Source of the DNA: a virus
Lineage: Duplodnaviria > Heunggongvirae > Uroviricota > Caudoviricetes
Reading direction: 5' to 3' (one strand)
Virus record (IMG/VR): IMGVR_UViG_2706794670_000011
DNA length: 5,512 nt
Shown piece by piece: positions 1 to 5,512 of this stretch. Numbering within the stretch: position 1 is the stretch's first letter; the number at the start of each line of letters is the position of its first letter. A program made the translations under genes and the position numbers. The notes beneath the pieces were generated by a model. The model saw nothing but the letters and a program-made list of their open reading frames with translations, did not search any database and was not told the origin of the DNA.

Positions 1-6
1 CTTTAG

Positions 7-384
7 AGTAACGTTGGGTTTTTCTGCTCATTATTAGCTCCTTCTGATGCCATTCTATTTCAGGAAGGAGTGTCCGTTAAACTCAGGCTACCTCAATTTG
101 CGCTGGGAAGTGGTGCGCAAGTTGCGTCTAGTGGCGATATTTATGGTTCAGTGTGGGAAAACAACTGGTTAAGCACATGGCTGCATAATCATGTCGTTCG
201 GGATATTCGTCTTGGCAGCATTGAATATAAAAACGTATGGCGCGACTACGGCTTTGGCGATGCGTCAGGTTATGTTTTAACAGCCGCAATTAACAGCAAT
301 GCGGATGATATTGTCGACACTGTTGCCAGAAGGCCAATTCAGAAATTGATTGGGGGAATATGGTACAACGTGGGGAGTGTTTAA
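7..384 (+). CDS. Tail fibre protein, C-terminal segment (stf-like); 5' part lies upstream of the window or is truncated
   Basis: Open frame from 7 to TAA at 382-384, directly followed by a tfa gene (TAAGATG junction). Its last ~60 aa align with the C-terminal end encoded on the minus strand at 1478-1660 (VRDIRLGS...[17 protein letters not shown] vs VRDVRLGT...[17 protein letters not shown]). An in-frame TAG sits at 4-6. Confidence 0.6.
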
Positions 385-385
385 G

Positions 386-913
386 ATGATGCACCTGAAA
401 AATATTAAGGCCGGGAATCCGAAAACACCGGAACAATACCAGCTAACTAAAAAAGCGGGCGTGGTATGGCTCTTTTGCGAAGATGGCAAAAACTGGTATG
501 AGGAACAAAAGAATTTTCAGCCAGACACCATAAAAATTGCTTACGATGAGAACAACATCATCGTTGCTGTCAGTAAAGACGTTTCAACTATTAATCCTGA
601 AGGGCTAAGCATAGTTGAAGTTCCTGATATTACGGCAAATCGTCACGCAGACAATAACGGAAAATGGATGTTTCTGGATGGTAAAGTAGTAAAGAGGGAA
701 TATACAGAACAGGAACTGCAACAACAGGCCGAATCACAAAAGGCCGCATTGCTTTCCGAAGCTGAATCAGTCATCCAGCCGCTGGAACGAGCTGTCAGGC
801 TGAATATGGCAACAGACGAGGAACGCACACGACTGGAAGCATGGGAACGCTACAGTGTTCTGGTCAGCCGTGTGGATACGGCAAATCCTGAATGGCCACA
901 AAAGCCTGAATAA
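386..913 (+). CDS. Tail fibre assembly protein (Tfa family chaperone)
   Basis: ATG at 386 ([14 protein letters not shown]...) one base after the stf stop, with GGGGAG 8 nt upstream. N-terminus and length match the Tfa family and are homologous to the convergent copy at 942-1475 ([14 protein letters not shown]...). C-terminus ([22 protein letters not shown]) is homologous to the tfa remnants at 2698-2781 and 3597-3830. The ORF track begins at 350, but 386 is the more likely start. Confidence 0.85.
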
Positions 914-918
914 AAATT

Positions 919-938
919 AAGGCCCGATAGCGGGCCTT
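919..938. terminator. Hairpin between convergent tfa genes, likely bidirectional intrinsic terminator
   Basis: AAGGCCCG-ATAG-CGGGCCTT: perfect 8-bp GC-rich stem with 4-nt loop in the 28-bp gap between the two tfa stop codons. An A/T run (TAAAAATT) flanks it on one side. Confidence 0.5.
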
Positions 939-941
939 CTC

Positions 942-1475
942 TCATTCTGGTTGTTCGGGAAACGTTACTGGCAGGCTGGAGGTGTCTGTGGATTCAACCT
1001 TCTGCGCATAGAGCATCCACTCGGTTAATTTTTGTTTATTCTCATCGGAAATGATGCCCAGCTGTAGCTGAGAGTCCCACAGCTGGGTTTTATCCCTGAC
1101 GAGCTGCAGCAGGCTCTGCTTTTCATTTTCCGCTTGTTGCCTTTGCTCTTCCTCGGTATAAGTTCGCTTTATCACCGCACCATCTTTGAACATCCAGTTG
1201 CCCGAAATATCAGCCCGGCGATTTGCTGTAATATCAGGCAACTCAACGACACTTAAACCTTCTGGATTAATTGCTGATACATCCTTGTCTATAGCAATAA
1301 TTATTCCCTCAACTGTGTAAGCCAGTTTTATTGTATCCTCCTGAAAGTTTTTTAATTCCTCATGCCAATTTTTTCCATCTTCGGACCATAACCAGATAAC
1401 ATCAAAATTCTTTGTTAGCTGGTATTGTTCAACGGTTTTTGGATTACCTGCGACAATGTTTTTTAAATGCTGCAT
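942..1475 (-). CDS. Tail fibre assembly protein (Tfa family), alternative copy
   Basis: 177-aa ORF starting [37 protein letters not shown], homologous along its length to the plus-strand Tfa at 386-913. Its ATG sits 2 nt after the stop of the upstream 49-aa stf' C-terminal ORF (TAATCATG). Confidence 0.85.
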
Positions 1476-1477
1476 GA

Positions 1478-1624
1478 TTATACCTGCGATACGTTATACC
1501 ATGTTCCGTTAATTAACTTTTGTATTGGTCTGAATACTGCCGGATCATCACCATCGACTTCACCGATAATACCAAGCCCCGTGATTACATGGCCTGATTT
1601 TTCATACATCACGCCTTTCTTCAT
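1478..1624 (-). CDS. 49-aa ORF encoding the conserved C-terminal end of the alternative tail fibre, detached from stf' by an in-frame amber codon
   Basis: Minus-strand [51 protein letters not shown]. It is in the same frame as the stf' ORF, separated only by TAG (1628-1630) plus one codon. It is homologous to the last ~45 aa of the plus-strand stf. Confidence 0.5.
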
Positions 1625-1627
1625 GGT

Positions 1628-2392
1628 CTAAACAACTCGTGTGCCAAGTCTGACATCTCTCACATAGCGGGAATCAAAGTTACCGTAATCCGAGGGATTA
1701 ACACGTCCCGTAATATTTATGGTTTTATTACTTTGAATGCTTCCGGAGACAAAGCGCATAACATGGACGTTATTAGCATAAACATCCAGATTACCATCGC
1801 CTTTTTGTTTAAAGCCCGTGTCATTATCACCCAATACAATCGAATTACCGCCAAGAGCACTGGATGTTCCGATACCCAGTGCACCATTCAGTTGACCACC
1901 AGANNNNNNNNNNNNNNNNNNNNNNNNNNNNNNNNNNNNNNNNNNNNNNNNNNNNNNNNNNNNNNNNNNNNNNNNNNNNNNNNNNNNNNNNNNNNNNNNN
2001 NNNNNNNNNNNNNNNNNNNNNNNNNNNNNNNNNNNNNNNNNNNNNNNNNNNNNNNNNNNNNNNNNNNNNNNNNNNNNNNNNNNNNNNNNNNNNNNNNNNN
2101 NNNNNNNNNNNNNNNNNNNNNNNNNNNNNNNNNNNNNNNNNNNNNNGGTGCTTCCTGTTTTCCCTAAGGCAAACGCACCAACATGACTTGCTTTTAATGT
2201 GATATCGGAGGAACCATCAAAAGCCACATTGCTTATTTTCCTGGCAGTTTTTAATTTTGCAGCTGTAGAAGCATTGCCGGATAGTTCACCAGAAAGGCCA
2301 CCGCTGAATGTTTGTCGATTAGTCCAGGTATTCGCTGTACTGAGTAACGGTATTTTCTCCCCGCTTGTGCCGAGTTCTCGTAAACCGAGGTT
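1628..2392 (-). CDS. Alternative tail fibre variable C-terminal segment (stf'); ends at in-frame TAG; middle part masked by Ns
   Basis: Minus frame is open from the crossover-like site (~2392) to TAG at 1628-1630. Translation (...ANTWTNRQTFSGGLSGELSGNASTAAKLKTARKISNVAFDGSSDITLKASHVGAFALGKTGST[81 masked]SGGQLNGALGIGTSSALGGNSIVLGDNDTGFKQKGDGNLDVYANNVHVMRFVSGS...) is typical of phage side tail fibre distal domains. The GTG at 2227 that the ORF track uses as start is probably internal. Confidence 0.65.
   Translation of the reverse strand, partial: NLGLRELGTSGEKIPLLSTANTWTNRQTFSGGLSGELSGNASTAAKLKTARKISNVAFDGSSDITLKASHVGAFALGKTGSTXXXXXXXXXXXXXXXXXXXXXXXXXXXXXXXXXXXXXXXXXXXXXXXXXXXXXXXXXXXXXXXXXXXXXXXXXXXXXXXXXSGGQLNGALGIGTSSALGGNSIVLGDNDTGFKQKGDGNLDVYANNVHVMRFVSGSIQSNKTINITGRVNPSDYGNFDSRYVRDVRLGTRVV
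1904..2146. other. Masked or unknown sequence (run of 243 N) inside stf'
   Basis: Continuous N run seen directly; content cannot be evaluated. Confidence 1.
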
Positions 2393-2400
2393 TTAGATAA
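2375..2400. promoter_or_regulatory. Candidate 26-bp crossover site for a Hin/Gin/Pin-family DNA invertase (hix/gix/pix-like)
   Basis: TTCTCGTAAACC-GA-GGTTTTAGATAA: two 12-bp imperfect inverted half-sites around a 2-bp core, located where the stf' frame opens and ~55 bp upstream of the invertase gene, the canonical position. The match to known crossover sites is from memory. Confidence 0.6.
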
Positions 2401-2454
2401 TGGCGGTTTCTGGCCTGCATGGCATGATTTGTGCTTTTGGACGGGAGATTCAGC

Positions 2455-2697
2455 GTGCTGATTGGCTATGTAAGGGTATCAACAAATGACCAGAATACAG
2501 ACCTGCAACGAAACGCTCTTGTTTGTGCAGGATATGAACAAATATTTGAAGATAAATTAAGCGGAACAAGGACAGGCCGACCTGGATTAAAACGTGCTTT
2601 AAAGCGCCTTCAAAAAGGTGACGCACTGGTTGTCTGAAAACTGGACTGACTGGGGCACTGTATGCGGCATCTTGTCGTGCTGGTGGTGGAAGCCTAG
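2455..2697 (+). pseudogene. pin: Serine DNA invertase (Pin/Hin/Gin family), disrupted: N-terminal ~80 codons with three in-frame stops, fused to a tfa 3' fragment
   Basis: GTG start at 2455 with GGAG 7 nt upstream. Translation MLIGYVRVSTNDQNTDLQRNALVCAGYEQIFEDKLSGTRTGRPGLKRALKRLQKGDALVV*KLD*LGHCMRHLVVLVVEA* carries the serine-recombinase N-terminal catalytic motif (YVRVST) and the family WKLDRLGR motif with W and R replaced by TGA (2635-2637, 2647-2649). The C-terminal two-thirds, including the HTH domain, is absent. Confidence 0.8.
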
Positions 2698-2781
2698 AAA
2701 AAGTATCGGGTGTTGCTGAACCGTGTTGATACATCAACTGCACCTGATATTGAGTGGCCTACGAACCCTGTCAGGGAGTAA
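2698..2781 (+). pseudogene. Tail fibre assembly protein 3' fragment (last ~28 codons), fused in frame behind the pin remnant
   Basis: [27 protein letters not shown] is nearly identical to the C-terminus of the tfa remnant at 3597-3830 and homologous to the C-terminus of Tfa at 386-913. The Trp codon of the conserved EAW motif is TAG here (2695-2697). Confidence 0.6.
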
Positions 2782-2835: not shown

Positions 2836-3504
2836 CTATTTTTTCCCTGAAGCGGAAAACATTACTACAGTACCTTGAACCCTGGTTTTAACATTCTCGA
2901 AATGCTCTGAGAGTATATGTGTTAAGCCTTCTTCGGAATCTTTTGTGTTTGAAAAGATGCCTTTCTGATTGTAAATGCGCATCAGTTTTTGACCGAAGCT
3001 ATTGTGCACAACTCCATCGCCAAGAATTGTGGCTCCGTATAGAGTTCCATCGTCAGTTAAGGCCTGCGCCGCATTGCGTATTACACAGCTTTTTGTAGAT
3101 ATATTTCCAGGCAGGCAGTGAAGAAGGTAAAACATGGAAATGGAATCAAATTGACCATGTAACGCCGCGGGATAAGGTTCAAAAACATCATGGCTAATTT
3201 TATGTTTAATTTTTGATTCCCCAGCCCTTGTAGATGCCGCGTTCAGGCTAGCTTCGTTCAAATCCATTAAAGATATCAGACTACTCTCAGGTACGTGAGT
3301 AAGGTAAAACCCAGTTCCAACACCAATATCCAGATGGTTGTTACCTAAATGTTCCAGAAAGTGTGGAAGAAGGTGTTCCTTTGTAGGACATCCCCATGCA
3401 AGCCGATTTGATACTCCCAAAACCCACCAGTCATAAAGCTTTAGGGTAAGTGGTGTGTAAATTTTAGCCCCATCATCTGTGTTTGTTTTCATTGATTTCA
3501 CCAT
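2836..3504 (-). CDS. Class I SAM-dependent methyltransferase (Rossmann fold), substrate unknown; probable prophage cargo (moron) gene
   Basis: 222-aa ORF (218 aa from the second ATG at 3492, which has GGTGA 5 nt upstream). Motif I LDIGVGTGFY (GxGxG SAM-binding loop), an acidic residue at the end of the next strand (LISLMDLNE), a later FDSISMFYLLHCLP segment and ALTDDGTLY. No DPPY/NPPY or PC-ENV motifs, so it is not an obvious DNA methyltransferase. Confidence 0.75.
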   Translation of the reverse strand: MVKSMKTNTDDGAKIYTPLTLKLYDWWVLGVSNRLAWGCPTKEHLLPHFLEHLGNNHLDIGVGTGFYLTHVPESSLISLMDLNEASLNAASTRAGESKIKHKISHDVFEPYPAALHGQFDSISMFYLLHCLPGNISTKSCVIRNAAQALTDDGTLYGATILGDGVVHNSFGQKLMRIYNQKGIFSNTKDSEEGLTHILSEHFENVKTRVQGTVVMFSASGKK

Positions 3505-3596: not shown

Positions 3597-3830
3597 TATG
3601 CTTCGATACAGCAGGAGCCGAATGGCTGGAAGACCGTCACCACACAGTTCTACATCCAGGAATTTAGTGAGTATATTGCGCCACTGCAGGATGCTGTAGA
3701 TCTGGAAATCGCAACGGAGGAAGAAAGATCGTTGCTGGAGGCATGGAATAAATATCGGGTATTGTTGAATCGTGTTGATACATCAACTGCACCTGATATT
3801 GAGTGGCCTGCAAATCCTGTCAGGGAGTAA
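3597..3830 (+). pseudogene. Tail fibre assembly protein C-terminal remnant (~77 codons, no start codon)
   Basis: Frame open from 3597 (stop at 3594-3596) to TAA at 3828-3830. Translation ...[57 protein letters not shown] is homologous to the C-terminal third of Tfa at 386-913. There is no ATG and no N-terminal Tfa domain. Confidence 0.7.
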
Positions 3831-3880
3831 TCATTGGGATTATGCCGCAGACACGTCGTATGCAGGAACGTGCTGCGGTT
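3747..3880 (+). repeat. Direct repeat copy 2 (tfa 3' end plus downstream hairpin)
   Basis: Partner of 2698-2830. Hairpin at 3845-3878 (CCGCAGACACGT...ACGTGCTGCGG) has a 1-nt bulge relative to copy 1. Confidence 0.85.
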
Positions 3881-4240: not shown

Positions 4241-4833
4241 ATTAAAACCGCATCAACCTTTCCACCAATTGTTCTTTACGGGCAACGATCCACCCATGTT
4301 GCTCCAGATAAAATTTAAACCGTTCCAGAGTGCATACCATCGCATCGGCGGGGACTTTTTCTGTGAACTCGACCTGANNNNNNNNNNNNNNNNNNNNNNN
4401 NNNNNNNNNNNNNNNNNNNNNNNNNNNNNNNNNNNNNNNNNNNNNNNNNNNNNNNNNNNNNNNNNNNNNNNNNNNNNNNNNNNNNNNNNNNNNNNNNNNN
4501 NNNNNNNNNNNNNNNNNNNNNNNNNNNNNNNNNNNNNNNNNNNNNNNNNNNNNNNNNNNNNNNNNNNNNNNNNNNNNNNNNNNNNNNNNNNNNNNNNNNN
4601 NNNNNNNNNNNNNNNNNNNNNNNNNNNNNNNNNNNNNNNNNNNNNNNNNNNNNNNNNNNCCGAAAAGTTGGCTGATGTAAATTCGGGAGAGCAGTCGAGT
4701 GTGTCAATCTTAGCTAAAACGTGTTTATGTTGTTTATCGAAGTAGTCGGCAACAGCTTGAGAGGTGGTAACCAGGCGACCATCTTTGAAAAAGACTTTTG
4801 GTGACTCGTTAGAAAAAGTTATAGCTGTATTCA
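4241..4833 (-). CDS. Phage regulatory protein, Rha family (N-terminal Rha domain visible; centre masked; C-terminal part in a different frame)
   Basis: ATG at 4833 (minus) with GGAG 9 nt upstream. N-terminus MNTAITFSNESPKVFFKDGRLVTTSQAVADYFDKQHKHVLAKIDTL matches the Rha-domain pattern (...TTS..VA..F.K.H..VL..I..L). After the N-run the only protein-like minus frame is ...QVEFTEKVPADAMVCTLERFKFYLEQHGWIVARKEQLVERLMRF*, ending at 4241-4243. Confidence 0.6.
4378..4659. other. Masked or unknown sequence (run of 282 N) inside the rha locus
   Basis: Continuous N run seen directly. Confidence 1.
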
Positions 4834-5409
4834 TATGTGATGACTCCAATTAATTGGATGATCACCACCTCTGACGCCAATCAGGGAGGTGGTGAGACGT
4901 ACAGGGTTGGCGTAACCGGTCATCACAAAACCCGGCGCGGATTTCTCCGCCCCTGCACGCCCCACCATAATGCGAATGTGGCAATGCTTAACGCAAAAAA
5001 AACCGCAAACGCGGCTATGCGTTGTGATGTTATCCGAGACGCCAATCCCGACAACCGATTTTGCGGTTGTGTGAGGAATATAGCCCCGGAGAACAAAAAC
5101 TGTCAACGGGCAAAAAAATTTCCGTTATCAGGAATGTATAAAATTAAAGCGATCGAGCAAAAAATCCTTTCTGCAAAACTAAAAAAGATTTCAATAAAAT
5201 CAGGCAGTTAAAAACACGGAAAACGGTATAAAAAAGCGCCTCAAAATCCTGTTTTTTCTTTCAGATACAATGTCTTATTGCATTTTTTAAAACATGTCAG
5301 TGTGGTACATGGATATCGATACCATCGCCAATTATAAACTGGGCGGTGCACAGCAACATGATAGCGTACGCCTCGATCCGTGGGTGTTTATGTTCTCAGC
5401 AGGATATCG

Positions 5410-5512
5410 GGTAATGACTCCAACTTATTGATAGTGTTTTATGTTCAGATAATGCCCGATGACTTTGTCATGCAGCTCCACCGATTTTGAGAACGACAGC
5501 GACTTCCGTCCC
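5410..5512 (-). mobile_element. IS1 insertion sequence, right end (partial; continues beyond the window)
   Basis: GGTAATGACTCCAACTTATTGATAGTGTTTTATGTTCAGATAATGCCCGATGACTTTGTCATGCAGCTCC... matches, from memory, the reverse complement of the IS1 right terminus, including the ~23-bp terminal inverted repeat at 5410-5432. Confidence 0.9.
5425..5512 (-). CDS. insB: IS1 transposase InsB, C-terminal end (partial)
   Basis: Minus-strand translation ...GRKSLSFSKSVELHDKVIGHYLNIKHYQ* with stop at 5425-5427, the characteristic InsB C-terminus. Confidence 0.85.
   Translation of the reverse strand, partial: GRKSLSFSKSVELHDKVIGHYLNIKHYQ

Follow-up and report, generated by a model that had tools for sequence, protein, structure and literature searches.

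Does the pair of convergent tail-fibre units in the left half of this viral sequence form a working host-range switch, or what is left of one? The window, the whole 5,512-nucleotide stretch that was analysed, had been described in an earlier note as carrying a classic invertible tail-fibre segment of the kind known from Mu G, P1 C and e14 P. The kind was recognised correctly, with Mu G-gin as the closest match, but the window does not hold a working switch. Positions 1-2700 are very probably what decay has left of an invertible tail-fibre cassette of the Mu G-segment/gin type, frozen and non-functional. Since the window is identical to several Shigella sonnei assemblies, we place these positions at the right end of a defective lambdoid prophage at ompW-trpA in that species. 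The S. sonnei loci L072-L074, L076 and L079 match the window across all unmasked bases, and the accession CP037997 is S. sonnei FC1653. Positions 1904-2146 of the window, within stfY, are masked as N; the full stfY sequence was taken from the identical locus L073.

Two alternative tail-fibre C-termini, each with its own tfa gene

The convergent stf-tfa organisation claimed in the earlier note holds, with one unit on the plus strand up to position 913 and the other on the minus strand from 942 to 2374. In the X arm, stfX (96-384, plus strand, stop codon 382-384) retains the final 96 codons of one of the alternative tail-fibre C-termini, its 5' part having been cut off by IS600. It matches the tail-fibre family PHROG 454 (E 6e-32), and the 918-aa Stf that is intact in S. 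sonnei locus L071 ends in an identical sequence; the last 66 residues of stfX resemble the Mu S' tip in PDB 8ju3 (E 7e-13). Directly behind it lies tfaX (386-913, plus strand), an intact tail-fibre assembly chaperone gene of the Mu U type. The 175-aa product matches Pfam Caudo_TAP (PF02413; E 8e-37, 126.8 bits against a cut-off of 22.1) and is 82% identical to Mu U, with 58 of the last 60 residues the same. A G+C-rich hairpin at 919-938, between the two convergent tfa genes, is terminator-like by its match to the consensus (an 8-pair stem with 6 G-C pairs, then a T run).

The Y arm mirrors this order on the minus strand. Its chaperone gene, tfaY (942-1475), is also intact and of the Mu U' type; the 177-aa protein matches Caudo_TAP (E 5e-34, 117.8 bits, same cut-off), is 85% identical to Mu U' overall and at 59 of its last 60 residues, and shares 55% identity with TfaX. 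Both Tfa proteins match PHROG 136. The second alternative C-terminal (variable) part, stfY (1478-2374, minus strand; PHROG 454, E 2e-76), is promoterless, adjoins the crossover site and has a tip 52% identical to that of Mu S. It is a pseudogene: an in-frame amber codon at 1628-1630 (minus strand) replaces the glutamine codon CAG with TAG 50 codons ahead of the natural stop, a position that is still CAG in the otherwise near-identical E. coli homologue L068. Because of this amber codon, the fusion reading frame in the inverted S. sonnei genomes is split into 875 aa and a 48-aa tail ORF. Thus two alternative fibre C-termini with their own tfa genes are present in convergent arrangement, the X arm truncated by IS600 and the Y arm nonsense-mutated.

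That the two C-termini share about their last 60 residues, as had been proposed, was confirmed by BLASTP: the final 62 residues align at 40% identity (E 2e-8), bounded at the two ends by VRD[IV]RLG and a 12-residue motif. Pfam returned nothing for the stf fragments except a sub-threshold gp37_trimer match, and the assignments above come from PHROG and PDB sequences. Judged from its homology to the Mu S and S' tips that have been crystallised or studied alongside TfaMu, the shared tip plausibly works with Tfa; a role of the tip in Tfa binding appears in a secondary account (PMC9608196). The pairing of tip and Tfa is crossed relative to Mu. We also considered the two Tfa proteins as chimeras of N- and C-terminal parts of Mu U and U'. 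This idea found no support, since the N-terminal 112 residues do not discriminate U from U' and only the last 60 do so.

A single gix-type crossover site remains

At the recombinase side of the Y arm, positions 2375-2400 (TTCTCGTAAACCGAGGTTTTAGATAA) form a 26-bp crossover site of the gix type, the last one remaining in the window lineage. It conforms to the gix/hix type, is identical to Mu gixR (read from the Mu genome, AF083977) at 23 of 26 positions, and is unique in the window, where chance would yield 0 matches with 3 mismatches or fewer allowed. It is exactly here that the stfY frame opens, which bears out the earlier description of a crossover-like site at that point.

No second site occurs in the window, nothing else there exceeding 16 of 26 matches, in agreement with the earlier note's doubts about one. 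The weak half-site resemblance it pointed to at 8-27 scores at background level, is not among the best matches and lies inside IS600. Its suggestion that the left site simply lies upstream did not hold. A search tolerating up to 5 mismatches found a single site in each of six identical window-type S. sonnei loci of 20.5 kb and no partner within 9.6 kb upstream, with IS600 interrupting stfX at 95/96. The bounding pair of inverted sites is thus missing from the window and from these six loci. The absence of an inverted partner within a few kb upstream was the earlier note's own ground for abandoning its reading, and on that ground the window copy fails as a switch. The same search succeeded in sister genomes, where the partner lies 2.9-3.06 kb away.

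IS600 forms the left boundary

The left edge of the window (1-95, minus strand) is the terminal 95 nt of IS600, a member of the IS3 family, whose terminus ...GGCTACCTCA ends at position 95 and truncates stfX. The chromosomes of Shigella and E. coli contain window positions 17-93 in 67 exact copies; these agree up to the CA at 94-95 and diverge beyond it, marking a common boundary, and none of the 67 carries the window's junction. A full copy of the 1,265-bp element, at 96% identity, is annotated as IS3-like element IS600. Its terminal inverted repeats are imperfect, and the left boundary was set by BLAST against another copy. Homology to intact stf begins at position 96, and the 3-bp target duplication is absent at this IS600.

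To the left of IS600, window-type loci carry unrelated phage lysis or other early-region genes and no tail genes. IS600 has replaced everything to the left of 96: two-thirds of the X arm, counted from its 5' end, along with the left site and the stf constant part. The constant part and the left site could lie elsewhere in the chromosome after an IS600-mediated rearrangement. By itself the window matters little; it records how IS elements drove a prophage host-range switch of S. sonnei into decay. It also accounts for the breaks that short-read assemblies show at this place, between IS600 and IS1.

The adjacent invertase gene is a stub with a candidate enhancer

Beyond the crossover site, a gin-type serine invertase stub (2431-2690, plus strand) reads through 68 codons to a TGA at 2635-2637. 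About 18 degenerate codons follow, with one more in-frame stop inside and another closing the stretch, and homology ends near 2690. The stub covers positions 2-69 of the 145 of the Pfam Resolvase profile, matches the PHROG DNA invertase and is 86% identical in amino acids and 91% in nucleotides to codons 1-79 of Mu gin. Alignment to e14 pinE shows that the remainder of the gene has been lost: a full-length invertase would have a catalytic domain, an E helix and a C-terminal HTH, but next to the site only about the first 85 codons survive.

Two Fis-like 15-mers within the stub (2500-2514 and 2548-2562, starts 48 bp apart) make up a candidate recombinational enhancer at 2500-2562. Both are identical in Mu gin, where the surrounding region (window 2455-2636) differs at 5 of 182 positions (97% identity); the Fis consensus matches 10 times in 326 nt, a density at which a chance pair of this kind is not unusual. 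Enhancers of this recombinase family sit inside the invertase gene, about 100 bp away from one of the sites (PMC3798978, citing Kahmann 1985). The stub may still carry a Fis enhancer.

The IS600 cut, the lone site, the truncated invertase gene, the loss of the stfX 5' part and the stfY amber codon together mean that the module in the window is not a working switch. The system is of a known kind, and the window copy is an ordinary fossil of it that is no longer able to flip.

Intact sister copies occur in both orientations

Intact loci with two sites were found in S. sonnei (L071, L075, L077 and L078) and E. coli (L001, L068 and L069), the sites being in inverted orientation. The intact sister copies of S. 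sonnei (lineages 1 and 2) and of E. coli (ST131) show both orientations; within S. sonnei, L071 and L078 are opposite to L075 and L077. Between a lineage 1.5 genome (CP179997) and a lineage 2.3 genome (CP179990) the difference is a precise inversion with flanks that are 99.94-99.99% identical, and the inverted interior (9095-12018) shows 0-2 substitutions depending on the genome pair. The outer half-sites remain with the flanks and the inner half-sites with the segment, and flank-type and segment-type polymorphisms switch within a shared 12-nt core, ACCTCGGTTTAC. A recombinant junction predicted in silico from EC958 was found in real E. coli genomes at 100% identity over 479 nt, and the recombinant junction is carried by 151 E. 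coli genomes versus 375 with the parental one. Both orientations with exchange at the site centre are thus observed, in the sister copies only; inversion is not possible in the window lineage, since one site is left.

In the intact form, two inverted 26-bp gix-like sites 2.9 kb apart bound the segment; one falls within stf (codons 615-623), and the second immediately precedes the invertase gene. Strand exchange by a serine invertase at the site centres fuses the stf constant 5' part to one of two C-terminal parts, X or Y, each about 300 residues long and with its own Tfa chaperone behind it.

S. sonnei and hundreds of E. coli genomes have this gin stub in common, and all sister copies found in both orientations carry it. 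As every flipped copy has the same truncated gin, the invertase would be supplied in trans, and we infer that a trans-acting enzyme causes the inversions in the sister genomes. The 3' half of gin is matched in 58% of E. coli genomes, and one ST131 strain has a full-length invertase gene by aroA. A broader reading, which we put forward tentatively and with about as much doubt as conviction, is of a cassette family that has no invertase of its own and is still flipped in nature by that of another prophage. The stub may then be kept for a Fis enhancer that inversion requires in cis, and the window's lone gix site and enhancer would remain a potential substrate for invertases acting in trans, along with other gix-like sites in the chromosome. 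That near-identical genomes carry an orphan G-type segment, its invertase gene dead, in either orientation points to prophage cross-talk of the kind recently demonstrated for PinQ and e14, and makes the wider cassette family of moderate interest. In comparative genomics, orientation differences at this locus are to be read as programmed inversions and not as misassemblies.

Alternative explanations

Could the module still serve as a host-range switch in this genome, with its partner site farther upstream and its invertase encoded elsewhere? Sister copies with the same truncated gin in both orientations show that the cis elements are usable in trans, and such use has been demonstrated for PinQ on e14 (PMC12529663). 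Against this stand the six identical loci, which lack a second site over 9.6 kb upstream, and the position of IS600, which abuts codon -96 of stfX and has lysis or other early-region genes beyond it. Nor is there an stf 5' part to fuse to, and stfY carries its amber codon. We consider a working switch very improbable. The orientation differences themselves might instead reflect RecA-dependent homologous recombination between inverted stf repeats, and some relatives do contain extended inverted repeats within the segment, such as one of 783 nt at 99% in L068. The arms beside the sites are unrelated in S. sonnei and EC958, however (64 of 238 positions identical), the polymorphism switch is confined to the 12-nt core, and the junction found at 100% identity is the one predicted for central-dinucleotide exchange. 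From the breakpoint mapping we reject homologous recombination as the cause of the inversions, and we give this route the least credence of all.

The remnant might also be kept for a host function, for example if the tfa genes or Stf fragments hindered the adsorption of other phages. Both tfa reading frames are intact amid decay, and the e14 P segment plays such a role in K-12, through a chimeric StfE2 (PMC12529663). The two intact genes could therefore reflect some retained use. Yet the sequence upstream of the two units yielded no sigma-70-like promoter, stfX lacks its start and 5' part, and stfY is promoterless and nonsense-mutated. Intact short genes in a clonal species prove nothing, and S. 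sonnei is too clonal for the state of the tfa genes to be informative. Retention for the host thus has a slim chance at best, and decay of an invertible cassette remains our preferred reading.

Relation to known invertible segments

Mu G is the nearest counterpart, with S/U and S'/U' units, gixL and gixR, and the sis enhancer. It shares the gene order and the gene sizes (U 175 aa, as TfaX; U' 177 aa, as TfaY), is 81.6% identical in nucleotides across U and U' and on into the 3' end of S', and in both cases the variable part opens with QETVN..A.NAVQ immediately past the site. The cassette differs from Mu in carrying the 614-residue N-terminus of a lambdoid Stf (Pfam phage_tail_N) where Mu has its 170-residue Sc, and in its truncated gin; the window has in addition lost one site and one arm to IS600.

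A G-gin-like cassette also exists in a Shigella chromosome as the B segment of S. boydii, whose 5' constant region is not the same. Shigella is known to contain defective invertase genes, and Hin, Gin, Cin and Pin have been documented to complement one another. Tominaga et al. reportedly described in 1991 the B segment with pinB, together with pinD and the defective pinF of other Shigella, in three subgroups. The subgroups of that study contrast with the window, which belongs to S. sonnei.

The e14 P segment of K-12 (stfP-tfaP/tfaE-stfE), likewise invertible and made up of stf and tfa genes, lies beside an invertase gene in a defective lambdoid prophage. It is 1797 bp long, has different inverted repeats (TTGGTTTGGGAGAAGG) and retains an intact pinE, in contrast to the truncated gin of the window; the stub is nearer to Mu gin (91%) than to pinE (68% mean column identity over the whole pinE alignment). 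Both orientations of e14 P coexist in cultures (PMC4272514), and its inversion in trans by PinQ of another prophage changes the phage sensitivity of the host (PMC12529663). P1 C/cin and Salmonella H/hin belong to the same recombinase family, with 26-bp sites, a Fis-dependent enhancer near one site and central-dinucleotide exchange (PMC3798978); the Salmonella H segment carries a promoter instead of fibre genes.

Structure of the cassette

The window copy is a fossil of an already known kind of cassette, the Mu G-gin type: a single crossover site is left, the constant stf part and the invertase are missing, and of the two arms one is down to 96 codons and the other is nonsense-mutated. ORF listing and translation place two convergent fibre units within window 1-2700. 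On the + strand, the open frame of the stfX tip ends at 384 and is directly followed by its chaperone gene tfaX (386-913); on the - strand, the long frame of the stfY variable part runs from 2374 down to 1478 and precedes tfaY (942-1475). Two interruptions fall in the stfY frame: an in-frame TAG at 1628-1630 and, at 1904-2146, a run of masked bases. Pfam Caudo_TAP recognises both Tfa proteins with scores far over threshold; they also match PHROG 136, and the stf pieces match tail-fibre PHROGs. The 26-bp gix-like site TTCTCGTAAACCGAGGTTTTAGATAA at 2375-2400 is the sole copy in the window, with 0 expected by chance. ORFs, profiles and site search thus bear out the earlier note's description of convergent stf-tfa units with a site at this position, and the terminal motif it saw in both stf C-termini is confirmed by 40% identity over a 62-residue stretch of the two fibre tips. 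The N runs are not true to length: 243 N (1904-2146) stand for 255 nt in the matching S. sonnei locus L073 (11519-11773), and 282 N (4378-4659) for 247 nt (14005-14251).

Beyond the site, the 68 residues encoded at 2431-2637 align with the first half of the catalytic domain of resolvases/invertases (Pfam, PHROGs). This gin stub differs from Mu gin at 5 of 182 positions within 2455-2636 and contains two Fis-like 15-mers, identical in Mu, whose starts are 48 bp apart. Enhancers of the Hin/Gin-type recombinase family lie inside the invertase gene, ~100 bp from one site (PMC3798978, citing Kahmann 1985), and it is plausible that the stub has kept such a candidate enhancer. Invertase-gene homology stops near 2690, exactly where a tfa 3' fragment starts. 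That fragment is the first of two 118-nt direct repeats (2684-2801 and 3733-3850; 90% identical), both tfa 3' fragments, which flank a class I SAM-dependent methyltransferase gene (2836-3504, - strand). The coincidence of the two ends suggests that gin was cut by the same event that brought in the methyltransferase cargo.

Relationship to phage Mu

By sequence comparison, phage Mu is the closest relative of the cassette. Across Mu, D108, SfMu and related phages, gin DNA is 91-95% identical to the window stub and site; 23 of 26 site positions are shared with gixR in the Mu genome itself, and Gin residues 1-79 are 86% identical to the stub. Mu U is 82% identical to TfaX and U' 85% identical to TfaY, the tfa genes are equal in size (175 and 177 residues), and window 386-1531 is 81.6% identical to the Mu stretch covering U and U' and reaching into the S' 3' end. 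Tips and chaperones are paired crosswise compared with Mu (window 96-1624 vs Mu locus L081 1400-2760). The StfX tip resembles Mu S' (its last 66 residues match PDB 8ju3 with E 7e-13, and the S tip, 5yvq, more weakly), yet TfaX ends like U, with 58 of its C-terminal 60 residues identical; the StfY tip resembles S, yet TfaY ends like U', with 59 of 60 identical. In their first 112 residues the Tfa proteins show no distinction between U and U' type.

IS600 at the left end

The left end of the window is IS600 sequence, which the earlier note overlooked. A scan of reference genomes found 67 exact copies of window 17-93 on chromosomes of Shigella flexneri and E. coli, all alike up to the CA at 94-95 and divergent thereafter; a full copy is annotated IS600 (1,265 bp). 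Likeness to other E. coli tail-fibre modules starts at 96, so ORF 70-384 is IS sequence fused to the last 96 stfX codons, and the weak half-site previously proposed at 8-27 is IS600 sequence. In window-type loci a complete IS600 lies directly upstream, followed by phage lysis or other early-region genes rather than tail genes, and the 3-bp target duplication around it is absent. The left flanks of this IS600 copy differ between S. sonnei assemblies (L070 8447-9710 vs L073 8448-9710). Together, the varied flanks and missing duplication indicate that rearrangements took place among IS600 copies after insertion.

Intact sister copies in both orientations

Two S. sonnei genomes, L071 and L078 (CP179997, lineage 1.5), are identical to the window from 96 onward and encode a 918-residue Stf. 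Its codons 615-623 cover the partner site TTCCTGTAAACCGAGGTATTCGATAA, which lies 2.9 kb from the first site in inverse orientation. Both sites are also present in E. coli ST131 EC958 and in the relatives L068 and L069. In L075 (CP179990, S. sonnei lineage 2.3) and L077 the segment is reversed, with flanks 99.94-99.99% identical to those of L071/L078 and 0-2 substitutions by genome pair in the interior (9095-12018). Outer half-site polymorphisms travel with the flanks and inner ones with the segment, which confines the exchange to the common core ACCTCGGTTTAC. These inverted sisters and the relatedness to Mu uphold the earlier reading of an invertible tail-fibre segment. The amber position is TAG in the window vs CAG in the E. 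coli homologue L068; owing to this TAG, the fusion protein of the inverted S. sonnei genomes stops 50 codons early.

We also built the recombinant junction of EC958 in silico, with exchange at the central dinucleotide; real E. coli genomes contain a perfect 479-nt match to it (100% identity). The recombinant junction occurs in 151 E. coli genomes vs 375 for the parental one; both counts are approximate, since modules whose arms have been homogenised, L068 for example, are scored as parental. ST131 strain 4/0 carries the recombinant junction, and strains 4/1-1 and 4/4 the parental one. Coding capacity in ST131 depends on orientation (L001 4281-7203 vs L082 280-3105): in EC958 (L001; parental) stf is annotated as a pseudogene without C-terminus, whereas in strain 4/0 (L082; inverted) it is intact, at 941 residues. 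The fibre arms of L068 form a 783-nt inverted repeat (5060-5842, 7279-8061; 99% identity) and differ in their tips only, suggesting gene conversion between them.

The sole mildly unexpected point is that intact sisters occur in both orientations though they lack an enzyme of their own. Since all genomes compared for orientation have the same truncated gin, we infer that the invertase is supplied from elsewhere, in trans. In support, the 3' half of gin is matched in 58% of complete E. coli genomes, and inversion of e14 in trans by PinQ has been demonstrated (PMC12529663). ST131 strain 2019_APHA also has a full-length 190-residue Din-type recombinase near aroA (L083 3746-4318). This recombinase adjoins a P2-like invertible fibre module and is a candidate for the enzyme flipping the orphan cassette.

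Genomic setting

L072, L073, L074, L076 and L079 equal the window at every unmasked base, CP037997 (S. sonnei FC1653) among them, and many assemblies encode a TfaX protein identical to that of the window. A search allowing ≤5 mismatches found no second gix-like site in 20.5 kb of window-type loci. Rightward, the locus continues with the methyltransferase, Rha, Ash, an ompW fragment, IS1 and trpA, an order shared with EC958 at 99.5% identity. The ompW 3' fragment (5294 to ~5408) is the prophage's right attachment side, adjoined by trpA in relatives, and is cut by an IS1 end from ~5409 (the observation spans 5294-5512). With IS600 at its left, the window is IS-bounded, as expected of a short-read contig.

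Comparing L068 and L069 with L001 and L070-L079, the prophage right end (truncated gin, tfa fragments, methyltransferase) occupies two chromosomal places, one beside potB-pepT and one beside ompW-trpA; the truncated-gin form apparently travelled within a mobile phage. A mosaic joint with EC958 lies at ~1650, with ~99% identity rightward and ~75% leftward, the latter covering fibre tip, both tfa genes and the other tip. The change falls at the VRDVRLG codons of stfY, so that the conserved motif coincides with a recombination boundary.
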